DNA of 64,000 nucleotides from a virus. The translations under genes and the position numbers were made by a program. The stretch spans positions 1 through 64,000 of the IMG/VR virus record IMGVR_UViG_3300033142_000925; one strand, given 5' to 3'. Below, piece after piece: positions 38,992-42,469 of this stretch. Under the pieces are notes generated by a model. That model was not told the origin of the DNA, ran no database searches, and saw only the letters and a list, made by a program, of their open reading frames with translations. Numbering within the stretch: the stretch's first letter is position 1; each line of letters opens with the position of its first letter.

Positions 38992-41063
38992 TAGTTACCC
39001 ACCGTCGGAATGACCATTTCGCCATCCGTAAATACGATACCAGCTTCACTCAATGCGGTCACAAGTTCCCGGATCGCTGTTGAAAGTTCACCCTCAGTAG
39101 TTGTCTGCCGGTTATAGAACTGCATAAGGATCGGATCGATTACATCTGTAATTTCACCTTTCTCTCTGATCTTACCCCCGATATCAAACAATCCAAGCCC
39201 CTCAACCGCTTCCTTCTTAGCCTGTCCACGGACCGCAGAGAGAATATCATTAAACAAACTACTAAACCCTCCAACACCTCCGCCGAATGATTGAAAGTCA
39301 CCCTCTTTTAATGATCGCCACGCCCCCATCCATCCGGGAGTAGCATCTGATATTTCATTGATCTGCCCCTGAAGACCTTCATTCTCCCGAAGTGACCGTA
39401 TGGTCGACGCGTTGGTTGCAAAGTTAGGATTTTGAAGCCAAGGGTCAACCGCATTCATATCTTTAATAGTCAAATTGGCTTCATCAATCTCAGCAGTAAG
39501 ATTACTAACATCCTGCGCAGTTATCGTATTCACTTCTTCAATGGTCTGATTTATTTGACCTTGAGCCGCTTCCATAAGGTCCCGGCGCACTCCACCAAAC
39601 TGAACATTGGTCGCATTGGTGTTGATCGGGTTTCCTGTGATCCATGCCGCCACACCCCCGAGCATTGTAGTCAATTCAAGGGCTGCATCCTGAACACCCT
39701 TGAGAGCTTCAATCTGTCTGGCTGCTGTCACTTCCCGAGCCTGATCATAATCAACAAGATTTCCATCGTCATCGTAAATCTTTCCTCTGACTCCGGCGGT
39801 AGCAACCCCTTTACCCGCTGCCGTGGAATATTCTCTACCCGATGATTGGATGAACGCATCAACCATGCTCATGCTGGTCCCGGCTCCCATATACTTCTGG
39901 ACCCTCATTCTCATAAGGTCCTCATCCCCGCCCGTCGACCGCTGAAGGTACTGAAATACAGCTTCATTGGTTTCGGTAGGATTCTGTTCCATCCGCATCA
40001 TAGTATCGGTCACACTCTCACCCGATTTTCTCATAGCCTGAAATGCTATGATGTCTTCCGGTGTTTGAAGCTGTGCCGCGCTCTGGGCTCTATTTGTTGC
40101 CAACTGATTCAAGGCCACTGCGCCGGTTGGTGACAGTCCGCCAAATTGGGCATATCCCGCCAATACGTTGCCTCGTTGATTCACCTCATCCTGAGACAGC
40201 TTGATCCCGCTGGTCATCGCGCCTTCGATGGTTCTGTTCATTTCTGTGAGGAAGGTTCCGAGACTTCCCCGGCCAAACGTTCCCGCGCCCCCGGCCAAGG
40301 TCCCGTATTCCATATTGACCCCGGCCCGCTGTGTAGTACCGAGAAGCTGTCCAAGCAAGCCAGCGTCAACACCTGCCCCTGTCATTACATCAGCAAACAG
40401 GCCAAACTGCCCCGCTGTGCCCTTCGTAAACTGGGCACCCGAAGTGCTGGCCGATGTCATGAGCGCATTTACCATACCAATAGGCACACCCGTACGTCCG
40501 AGTTCAGTCATATAATTCTGAGTGTTTTCGTACGATGCTCCAAGTCGCTGGGAGATCCCCCCACCGAAGACGTTTTCCATACGTCCATATGAACTTTCTG
40601 CGAACTTCTGTACTCCCATGGCCCCTGCTCCGAGTGCCATGAGTGCGATTCCTATAGGACCGCCGACGAGACCGCCAGCCATGTTCGCGAGGCCACCGGC
40701 TGCGGCACCTCCACGACCTGCGCCTGCGGCCTCAGCAGTAGAGAAAGCGCCACCGACCGCACCGGGCCGGATGGCGTTATTGTATCCACTATTCGAGGAT
40801 TGTCTCTGTCTGGATTGTTCCTGATAATCCCGGTTCCGGGTTTCACGTGCGGCTACATCTGCATTCGACTGACCACCCGCCATGACTCCTGAGTTCGGAG
40901 ATACAGCCTTCGAGAAGGGGTCACCTCCACCAATAGCACCGGGTGACAACCCCTTTGCGGAGGCTGCCACCTGATCATAGGCTTCTTTGAGCTTTCGTAT
41001 TTCTCGTGCCGCTTGGTCTGCGCCTTGCGCCTCGACCTTAATCCGGCTGACTATATCCGGCAT
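38991..41063 (-). CDS. Tape measure protein
   Basis: Gly/Ala-rich helical protein after the tail chaperones. Confidence 0.75.
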   Translation of the reverse strand: MPDIVSRIKVEAQGADQAAREIRKLKEAYDQVAASAKGLSPGAIGGGDPFSKAVSPNSGVMAGGQSNADVAARETRNRDYQEQSRQRQSSNSGYNNAIRPGAVGGAFSTAEAAGAGRGGAAAGGLANMAGGLVGGPIGIALMALGAGAMGVQKFAESSYGRMENVFGGGISQRLGASYENTQNYMTELGRTGVPIGMVNALMTSASTSGAQFTKGTAGQFGLFADVMTGAGVDAGLLGQLLGTTQRAGVNMEYGTLAGGAGTFGRGSLGTFLTEMNRTIEGAMTSGIKLSQDEVNQRGNVLAGYAQFGGLSPTGAVALNQLATNRAQSAAQLQTPEDIIAFQAMRKSGESVTDTMMRMEQNPTETNEAVFQYLQRSTGGDEDLMRMRVQKYMGAGTSMSMVDAFIQSSGREYSTAAGKGVATAGVRGKIYDDDGNLVDYDQAREVTAARQIEALKGVQDAALELTTMLGGVAAWITGNPINTNATNVQFGGVRRDLMEAAQGQINQTIEEVNTITAQDVSNLTAEIDEANLTIKDMNAVDPWLQNPNFATNASTIRSLRENEGLQGQINEISDATPGWMGAWRSLKEGDFQSFGGGVGGFSSLFNDILSAVRGQAKKEAVEGLGLFDIGGKIREKGEITDVIDPILMQFYNRQTTTEGELSTAIRELVTALSEAGIVFTDGEMVIPTVGN

Positions 41064-41373
41064 TTGCCAACTGCTCCTTCATCCGTTCAATCTGTTCCGG
41101 CGTATACCCCGCTCTCGCGAAGTTCTTCTCCGCCGTCTCGTCGATCACCGGATCACCCGCTTTCCTGTCATGGAAGCGCTTTATCTGTTCCGACGATGGC
41201 AGTTCAGTCCAGCCATAGAACATCAAAACCTTCTGGTTTTCAGTTAGCTTCTTGAACCTCTCATCCGTCGGCAGTATTCGAAAATGATGCATGATCCATA
41301 GGTCAAGACTTTCGTCCCTTGCTAAGGTCTTCCAGTCCGCCCGATTTAAGTTTTGATTGAAACTCGCCGCGAA
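41038..41373 (-). CDS. Tail assembly chaperone C-terminal extension (gpT-like), probably reached by +1 frameshift
   Basis: Frame is open well upstream of the ATG at 41292, back to ~41400; LWIMHHFRILPTDERF..LT..Q. Confidence 0.6.
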   Translation of the reverse strand, partial: FAASFNQNLNRADWKTLARDESLDLWIMHHFRILPTDERFKKLTENQKVLMFYGWTELPSSEQIKRFHDRKAGDPVIDETAEKNFARAGYTPEQIERMKEQLANAGYSQPD

Positions 41374-41692
41374 ACCGCAAATAGGATGTGTACAGTTCCC
41401 CTATGCACGCCTCATCATAACACGTCCAAGCGGATTTAAACCACTCAGGCGACTCCTCACGGATGACGAGGTTATCCGCGTAGGCTGTAGCTTCGACAAG
41501 CGCGAGGTGATCCGCTGGGTAAGTATCCCGTGCAAATCCTCCGAGCTTCCTTGAGATGTCTGCTTCTATTCCTGCTTTTTCAAACGGGCTTGGGTACTTC
41601 ATTGTGAAGACCTCGCCGTTATACTCGACCGTGAACTTCAGATCATCTTCATGAATAATCTGTTGTCCGATTCTGATATCTTTCTTCGCCAT
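41303..41692 (-). CDS. Tail assembly chaperone (gpG-like)
   Basis: Between tail tube and TMP; GAGGAG RBS before ATG 41692; ends ...YLRFRGE... Confidence 0.75.
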   Translation of the reverse strand: MAKKDIRIGQQIIHEDDLKFTVEYNGEVFTMKYPSPFEKAGIEADISRKLGGFARDTYPADHLALVEATAYADNLVIREESPEWFKSAWTCYDEACIGELYTSYLRFRGEFQSKLKSGGLEDLSKGRKS

Positions 41693-41708
41693 TGTGTCTC
41701 CTCTTCTC

Positions 41709-41749
41709 AAAAGGAATACCCAGTGGGGCTGGACGTAACCCCACCGAGT
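41709..41749 (-). terminator. Hairpin / probable terminator after the tail tube gene
   Basis: ACTCGGTGGGGTT-N6-AGCCCCACTGGGT followed by ATTCCTTTT. Confidence 0.55.
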
Positions 41750-41761
41750 TTAAAACGATGG

Positions 41762-42469
41762 TTAGATCGTTCGCTCTACACTCATCATCCGCAGATTCGC
41801 GGTTATGTAACTGTTGGGCGTGATCTGAACCCCATTACTCGCAATCATAACCTTTCGGAACTGATTTACGAGTTGACCGGTTGCGGTGTTCAGGAATTGC
41901 AGTGTATCGAACTCACCCGGTTTCCCGTCATTCGACTGCACCTGACTCCGTGTCGGTATAAACTCAGCCAAGGCGACCGCGCCGCCATCTGGCCATGGAC
42001 CCTCGCCCGGTCTCTCCGGGAGAAAGGTTGATAGTGTAACAGTACACGAGTATCCCTGCGAATCATAGTCAACAGGACCATGATAGTTCAGGACGTTGGC
42101 TGGATTAACCAATTTTGTTATCCTAAAGGCTTTTTATCCCTTAGTTCTACACCTTCATTTCAGTGTAGTTCAGCATATCTTTTCAACTCAATGAGTTGGT
42201 GCGGCCTCGTGGAAGGATTATATTCTGCCTTAGCAGGTTCACCTTCTATGCGTTGCCCCTGACCAGCCGTTTAAAGCATAGCCTTCGGTTCGGATTCCCA
42301 TCTCAGGGTTCCCGCTTCATTCCGCACTTTCTTACCCCTATATCGCTACAGGGGAGGCCGTCAATCCAGCCCAATCCTCGTCGTAGGAAGCCCCGGTCGC
42401 GAGACCTACAGGCTGTCCGTTAATAAGAACTTGTACCCATGCACCACCAGCAAGTATTTTCTGCGCCAT
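41762..42469 (-). CDS. Tail tube protein, split by a group I intron: exon 1 42469-42368, exon 2 42109-41762 (149 aa spliced)
   Basis: AGGAGG-ATG at 42469 right after the sheath; exon 1 MAQKILAGGAWVQVLINGQPVGLATGASYDEDWA joins in frame to VNPANVLNYHGPVDY... Confidence 0.88.
42110..42367 (-). ncRNA. Group I self-splicing intron (258 nt, no homing endonuclease ORF)
   Basis: U at the 5' splice site with P1 GGGCU/GGCCU U.G pair; P10 GGAUUGAC/GUUAAUCC; P2 with GCGA loop; P3 GUGCGG/CCGCAC; P7 A(C)GCAUA/UAUGCU; P8 CAACUC/GAGUUG; P9 CUACAC/GUGUAG; terminal G. Confidence 0.9.

Follow-up and report, generated by a model that had tools for sequence, protein, structure and literature searches.

The tail tube gene on the minus strand of the viral metagenome record IMGVR_UViG_3300033142_000925 is interrupted by 258 nt (positions 42367-42110 of the window, i.e. 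of the stretch of 64,000 nt at positions 1 to 64,000 of the record that was analysed here), which very probably constitute a functional, ORF-less group I intron. By its sequence it belongs to an IA1-like phage family together with TMP-IVS3b of Bacillus and the introns in the terL and tape measure genes of phage JCL1032. The record is a metagenomic assembly of 80.8 kb with an estimated completeness of 84%, and the intron is present in it as a single copy.

The interrupted tail tube gene

The order on the minus strand is tail sheath gene, exon 1, insert, exon 2, a pair of tail assembly chaperone genes and a gene for a 690-aa tape-measure-like protein. The sheath gene (44209-42479, 576 aa), located upstream of the tube gene, matches phrog_279 at E=3.5e-59. 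Exon 1 (42469-42368) consists of an ATG and 33 further codons, ends with ..DEDWA and carries an AGGAGG ribosome-binding site ahead of the ATG, as read from the sequence. Its last codon is GCU, whose final U (42368) is the U of the 5' splice site. Exon 2 (42109-41762) opens with GTTAATCC, in frame with a 116-aa ORF of the ORF list, and comprises 115 codons (42109-41765; VNPAN...ERTI) followed by the stop codon (41764-41762). The TTG 'start' of the 116-aa ORF at 42112 lies within the 3' tail of the intron, straddling the 3' splice site, and is an artefact. In-frame reading from exon 1 into the intron ends at a TAG at intron nt 28-30 (42340-42338), resulting in a 43-aa ORF in the list. The proper annotation here is one joined 149-aa CDS instead of the 116-aa TTG ORF and an orphan 43-aa ORF. 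Upon re-reading of the sequence, the coordinates and all sequence details reported in an earlier note on this DNA proved correct.

We assign the gene to the tail tube because of its Foldseek matches and its position directly after the sheath gene. At the level of sequence families the support is weak: the best match of the protein is phrog_985 ('virion structural protein', E=5e-5), with exon 1 weakly matching positions 10-36 of this family, there is no Pfam family for it, and a sequence-profile search of the PDB gave nothing meaningful. The AlphaFold model of a 90%-identical intronless homologue (pLDDT 68) has its best Foldseek matches in the tube of phage 812, the diffocin tube CD1364, the tube of cyanophage Pam3 and Hcp (E=2e-3 to 4e-2, TM about 0.45-0.5), with the tube protein of the Twort-like phage 812 as top match. 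The genes downstream of the tube gene match chaperone phrogs. Modelled structure and gene order thus support the interpretation of the earlier note that the interrupted gene, lying between the sheath and the chaperone and tape measure genes, is the predicted tail tube gene of a myovirus-like phage. The chaperone region itself (41038-41710, minus strand) contains an ORF of 129-135 aa (phrog_1038) and, overlapping with it, an ORF of 84 aa matching longer chaperone families in their C-terminal part (phrog_25000 positions 145-199). From its sequence this ORF pair has the layout usual for a programmed frameshift that would yield a G/GT-like chaperone pair.

A search with exon 2 yielded 86 relatives. 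Almost all have a length of exactly 149 aa (34+115), and about 80 of them are intronless. Exon 1 aligns with residues 1-34 of the intronless 149-aa homologues. The insertion point lies between codons 34 and 35, inside the motif DEDW-A/V-NP. The comparison of the spliced 149-aa product with intronless homologues, which had been proposed by the earlier note, gave an alignment that is continuous across DWA/VNP, with neither gap nor overlap at DEDWA/VNPAN, the most conserved stretch of the tube family. Among the loci on viral contigs 23 of 24 are uninterrupted. The same applies to every junction-spanning locus among the 62 on metagenome contigs but one, and this one and the interrupted viral locus are on one and the same contig (L014 = L029 = L182, in the following L029). 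L029 carries an insert of 257 nt at a position identical to that in the window. The scan of metagenomic tube genes gave no further carrier. Two carriers are known, the window and L029, which makes the intron a rarity in tube genes, although the homologues P0024 and P0025, also of 116 aa, are probably split as well. A tblastn search of GenBank phages with exon 2 gave no match.

Architecture of the intron and covariation of its helices

The earlier note had named the helices P1, P10, P2, P3, P4/P5, P7 with a bulge, extra helices between P7 and P3', P8, P9 and P9.1, and all of them are present in the insert (all positions in the following refer to the minus strand). The internal guide sequence (42355-42367) provides nt 1-8 (GGAUUGAC) for P10 and nt 9-13 (GGCCU) for P1. 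GGCCU forms P1 with GGGCU at the end of exon 1, the pair at the splice site being a U.G wobble, and this stem is also contained in the MFE fold. P10, immediately 5' of the P1 partner, is formed by GGAUUGAC and GUUAAUCC (exon 2 nt 1-8) with 8 of 8 positions paired. By simple arithmetic, the chance of such a pairing at one fixed place (G.U allowed) is about 1/2048. In L029, 7 of the 8 P10 pairs are kept. The exon-intron boundary can be moved by 1 nt leaving the spliced sequence unchanged; a U before the 5' splice site results only from the placement chosen in the earlier note, and the last base of the insert is a G (42110).

The P2 hairpin (42335-42354) comprises 8 bp with a GCGA loop of the GNRA type and holds the in-frame TAG (42338-42340). 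It is followed by the 5' strand of P3 (GUGCGG, 42322-42327; partner CCGCAC, 42199-42204), the P4-P5 hairpin (42291-42314; CGG/CCG, internal loop GAA/AAU, CCC/GGG) and P6 (CC/GG) with the P6a hairpin (42258-42288). With only three Watson-Crick pairs in P4 and only two in P6, the P4-P6 domain is minimal. The 5' strand of P7 (42247-42253) reads A, a bulged C and GCAUA; its 3' strand UAUGCU (42172-42177) is preceded by AAAAGA, both together being S-element-like. The G-C pair of P7 beside the bulge is the expected guanosine-binding site. Between P7 and the 3' strand of P3 lies P7.1 (GAAGG/CCUUC) with the nested P7.1a hairpin (42212-42246), an extra domain typical of subgroup IA. The P8 hairpin (42184-42198) and, after the 3' strand of P7, the P9 and P9.1 hairpins (42123-42168) complete the structure, which leads into the tail GAUAACAAAAUUG closing with the terminal G at 42110. 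The MFE of the insert has a z-score of -4.4, and none of 200 shuffled sequences folded as stably.

No sense-strand ORF of 30 aa or more is present in the intron, and two antisense ORFs of 60 and 75 aa have no Pfam match, in line with the description of the insert as ORF-less and devoid of a homing endonuclease in the earlier note. The neighbouring genes encode sheath and chaperone, and no endonuclease gene lies beside the intron.

A further observation concerns the hexamer GAGGCC (42206-42211) just 5' of the P3 3' strand, which is invariant in an alignment of eight family members described below and exactly complementary to GGCCUC in the guide region (42354-42359). By sequence, both could pair in competition with P1. 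The hexamer differs in plasmid pBWB404 (GAGACC) and in phage phiR1-37 (GAGUCC), and the complementarity may be a coincidence.

Catalysis and splicing in vivo are inferred from this anatomy as follows. The late sheath-tube transcript would fold into the P3-P9 core, and the guide sequence at the 5' end of the intron would pair with the end of exon 1 to form P1 with its U.G wobble. Free guanosine bound at the P7 G-C pair would then attack after the splice-site U. Subsequently the terminal G (42110) would take the place of the guanosine while P10 aligns exon 2, and ligation would result in the mRNA for the 149-aa tube protein. Ribosomes continuing past exon 1 would halt at the UAG in P2, ahead of the catalytic core.

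Two alignments were used to examine covariation. The first comprises eight sequences taken from three or four different host genes and covers the introns of tube, reductase and polymerase, laid out from P2 through P9.1. Standard pairs occupy 96% of the cells in this alignment, a share that falls to 31-43% when the partners are slid. Of its 59 pairs 30 are compensatory, i.e. changed on both sides. P9 and P9.1 are paired to 100% in the eight sequences, with 4 of 6 and 5 of 7 compensatory pairs, respectively. For the second alignment we built a covariance model of the intron core (R1) from the intron family of the window, from which the P7 pseudoknot pairing was deliberately omitted. The search with R1 yielded 112 copies in 100 loci, of which 106 distinct sequences were used. 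In this alignment, which is fitted to R1 for every helix except P7, the share of paired cells is 96.4%, with compensatory changes in 30 of 34 pairs. All pairs covary in P3 (6 of 6, 99.5% paired) and P7.1 (5 of 5, 99.2% paired), as do all 4 modelled pairs of P8, and changes on both sides were found for 2 of 3 pairs in P4, 3 of 3 in P5, 2 of 2 in P6 and 5 of 5 in P6a. Taking both alignments together, no helix is without compensatory changes.

P7, though absent from R1, is paired in 92.7% of the cells and has three covarying pairs. Its G-C pair is kept in 95 of the 106 sequences, and one of the covarying pairs is that flanking the bulged nucleotide next to it, being A-U in 62 and G-C in 30 of them. 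The P7 of the window, GCAUA/UAUGC, had been taken by the earlier note for a compensatory variant of the usual GACUA/UAGUC. It is indeed a double compensatory change, and the relative L027 carries the canonical form. The core of the window (42169-42329) scores 177 bits with R1, its sequence being among those from which R1 was built. Independent support for the intron is therefore taken from the covariation and from the R1 matches to published introns and not from this score. Structure, covariation and homology to published IA1 introns agree with the assignment to an IA-like group I intron made in the earlier note.

The comparison with the second carrier provides evidence on the state of the intron. 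The introns of the window and L029 are 91% identical, while identity is 71% and 78% in the two exons and 65-69% in the flanking genes. Third codon positions account for 89 of the 109 exon differences; both exons are in frame and under purifying selection. Of the 22 substitutions in the intron 13 are located in helices, and none of them breaks a pair. Each of P2, P7.1a, P8 and P9 shows a double compensatory change, e.g. from A-U to G-C in P8 and from U-A to C-G in P2, where in addition a C-G pair became U.G and the loop GCGA became GUGA. Alternatively it might be that the intron is an inactive relic which no longer splices, leaving the tube gene as a pseudogene or in two pieces, the 43-aa peptide and the TTG-started 116-aa protein. 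This would be conceivable insofar as the contig is an incomplete metagenomic assembly, the TTG at 42112 does open a frame of 116 aa, and an intron with two known carriers among tube genes could be a recently acquired, already dead copy. However, all core helices are intact, and two diverged carriers have kept all pairs through the 13 helix substitutions with four double compensatory changes. Moreover the selection on both exons argues against a pseudogene, and the two-piece version would have to start translation at a TTG that has no ribosome-binding site of its own and is part of the intron's 3' tail, omitting exon 1, which forms the first two strands of the tube fold predicted by the AlphaFold model. 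We therefore regard a relic as improbable and prefer an active intron.

Relatives of the intron and the Rfam model RF00028

The earlier note had suggested a search with group I covariance models, a missing match being regarded as evidence against the intron. In Rfam searches of the window and of relatives, with the gathering threshold as well as with E<=10 or E<=1 as cut-off, no group I match was obtained, and RF00028 gave none in the window even at E<=10. The three introns of Twort orf142, used as positive control, were found by the same model at 64-101 bits. Yet RF00028 also misses the relatives in Yersinia phage phiR1-37, in an Exiguobacterium phage and in Bacillus phage PJN02 as well as the published TMP-IVS3b of pBWB404. 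Since the model fails on published members of the very family to which the intron of the window belongs, the negative result is uninformative; it is a blind spot of the model and not a refutation. This agrees with a survey from 2025, according to which RF00028 and the GISSD models under-represent phage introns and RF00028 is incomplete for them (PMC11878797).

The missing RF00028 match is also what could be put forward for an insert that is no intron of this type at all, i.e. a MITE or IS remnant, a group II intron, an intein, an assembly chimera or a case of translational bypass. Only group I introns have the covarying P3/P7 pseudoknot architecture seen here, and the probability left for these explanations is negligible. 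They were also rejected one by one. The insert has no terminal inverted repeats and no transposase, a group II intron would be much longer, and in-frame stop codons exclude an intein. Translational bypass is known for T4 gene 60, where it covers 50 nt, a length far exceeded by the 258 nt here. The independent contig L029 with the same insert at the same site is incompatible with an assembly artefact.

A group I intron is also what the relatives indicate, whose host genes are typical ones for such introns. A search of viral contigs with the P4-P5 motif detected relatives in ribonucleotide reductase (NPCG/E), in family A DNA polymerase and in a capsid-like gene, and a second motif search extended the family to at least 98 viral contigs. 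By blastn the intron has 65-80% identity to sequences in 69 GenBank phage records and 28 plasmid records, the majority of the matches being located in unannotated gaps that split genes. Further host genes are gyrA, terL, the tape measure gene and a RecD-like helicase gene adjoining a 'mobile intron protein'. Altogether, close relatives occupy at least 8 gene types, early and late ones. A family of this size is undetected by the standard Rfam model, and gyrase, terminase, helicase and ribonucleotide reductase genes consequently stand as separate pieces in deposited genomes. Many such annotations would be mended by a covariance model built for this family.

In three deposited phage genomes R1 matches unannotated gaps at 89-118 bits, and the flanking CDS look like gene halves. 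These are Yersinia phage phiR1-37 between g328 and g329 (gyrase A; L038:1465-1632), Exiguobacterium phage vB_EauM-23 after terL and before an HNH gene (terminase; L039:1497-1647) and Bacillus phage PJN02 between two RecD-like helicase CDS (L040:1423-1594). By their sequence the three gaps are probably unannotated introns.

The ribonucleotide reductase gene of several viral contigs contains an intein whose end, ..ILIHN, immediately precedes CGE in the NPCGE motif. Two codons past this intein, after CG/E, follows a group I intron of the same family, so that two selfish elements are inserted within about 6 nt. This was found at L028:1924-2162 (the same sequence occurs in L032 and L034), L031:8845-9092 and L037:8871-9112. 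More distant relatives (R1 about 27 bits) are found at L026:2206-2515, L030:3942-4251 and L035:8779-8916 inside an apparent major capsid gene after ..IANTD. These have canonical P, Q and R elements (AAUUGCGGGAA, AAUCCGCAGCC and GGUUCAACGACUAG) and an ORF within the intron.

The range of host genes has a bearing on the function of the intron. The earlier note had suggested that splicing could gate tail assembly on the availability of guanosine or Mg. More generally, conditional splicing might serve as a checkpoint on tail production, controlled by the supply of guanosine or Mg or by translation, and an intron within a high-copy late gene would be well placed for such a role. We found no support for gating. 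The same intron family occurs in many unrelated genes, early and late, most tube genes have no intron, and the 258-nt ribozyme carries no sensor domain. Because the family is spread over many unrelated genes and is rare in tube genes, a selfish element explains the data better than an evolved regulator, and a checkpoint appears very improbable.

Known introns in late phage genes and possible spread of the intron

The closest published introns are those of prophages of the Bacillus cereus group, TMP-IVS3b, TMP-IVS3a and term-IVS1, which are group I introns of subclass IA1, with TMP-IVS3b lacking a nuclease gene (Tourasse & Kolsto 2008, PMC2504315). The intron of the window shares 73% identity with TMP-IVS3b over intron nt 77-255 (blastn). 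R1 matches TMP-IVS3b of pBWB404 at 113 bits over the full model, the locus being in the tape measure region of this Bacillus mycoides KBAB4 plasmid. Both introns are ORF-less, reside in a late tail gene, have the nested P7.1/P7.1a and are missed by RF00028. They differ in the host gene, which is tape measure or terminase in the Bacillus prophages, and in guide sequence, P1 and P2; furthermore P4 of pBWB404 is CAA/UUG where the window has CGG/CCG. The hosts of the Bacillus introns are Firmicutes, whereas the phage of the window is uncultured and known from environmental metagenomes.

Within the family, experimental proof of self-splicing is reported for Lactobacillus delbrueckii phage JCL1032, which has one intron in terL and another in the tape measure gene (Riipinen & Alatossava 2004, as referred to in PMC6669764). 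R1 matches exactly these two genes, both annotated as joined CDS, terL at 57 bits (E=2e-15) and the tape measure gene at 23 bits (E=3e-5). Like the intron of the window they are located in late genes, but they are more distant in sequence and their host genes are different ones.

With regard to the function of the host gene, the counterpart is orf142 of Staphylococcus phage Twort with the introns I1-I3, later recognised as tail tube gene (PMC11878797); the ribozyme of I2 has been crystallised. The Twort introns and that of the window share a P2 with GNRA loop, an R-like GCAACG..UA element and a bulged P7, and the 3' layout of I2 and I3 is identical to that of the window (P7'-UGAAC-P9-AA-P9.1-UAACAnAAUUG). 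In contrast, RF00028 finds the Twort introns and R1 does not, and for the intron of the window the reverse is true. Twort, T4 and SPO1 gave no better value with R1 than an E of about 0.3, and the match in T4 is a false positive inside gene 46. Furthermore the Twort gene contains three introns and shows exon skipping. Twort introns have tandem P7.1 and P7.2 hairpins (IA2) and the window has the nested P7.1/P7.1a. In the Michel-Westhof scheme nested P7.1/P7.1a define IA1 and tandem P7.1/P7.2 define IA2, and the predicted structure of the intron thus fits an IA1-like type.

Group I introns of further major virion genes can be likened to that of the window by the kind of host gene. They include the tail tube intron of the BwK1 prophage (B. 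weihenstephanensis KBAB4 pBWB401 and B. cereus B4264), which has no complete nuclease gene (PMC2504315), and introns in capsid and tail genes of Cluster J mycobacteriophages, which are spliced during late expression (PMC3706429). The statement of the earlier note that introns in a late tail gene have a precedent in Twort but are uncommon therefore holds for Twort and has to be extended by these other precedents. Group I introns in tail tube and other late genes (Twort orf142, BwK1, Cluster J; tape measure, terminase, capsid) are already known, and the window adds one more case. That a selfish ribozyme occupies the best-conserved motif of a high-copy virion protein is likewise a documented pattern. 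The added value lies in a clean example of a large intron family unseen by Rfam.

The carriers differ at 59% of exon third codon positions and, by simple arithmetic, at about 7% of the unpaired intron positions. Due to this difference the intron looks much younger than the split of the host genes. A co-conversion gradient was not visible in the exons adjoining the intron when the window was compared to L029. We give about even odds to the interpretation that a nuclease-less intron is spreading horizontally, its whole family being invisible to RF00028 and leaving phage genes in GenBank split without annotation. If so, an intron that encodes no endonuclease would have to move by reverse splicing, with the help of a nuclease provided in trans, or through recombination in co-infected cells. 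The same puzzle, spread in the absence of a nuclease gene, has been raised for TMP-IVS3b (PMC2504315).

Some viral contigs contain several copies within 1-2 kb, namely L133 (three R1 matches, 493-1869), L113 (three, 1165-2129), L123 (three) and L061 (two). These clusters of two to three intron copies resemble the three introns of Twort orf142.
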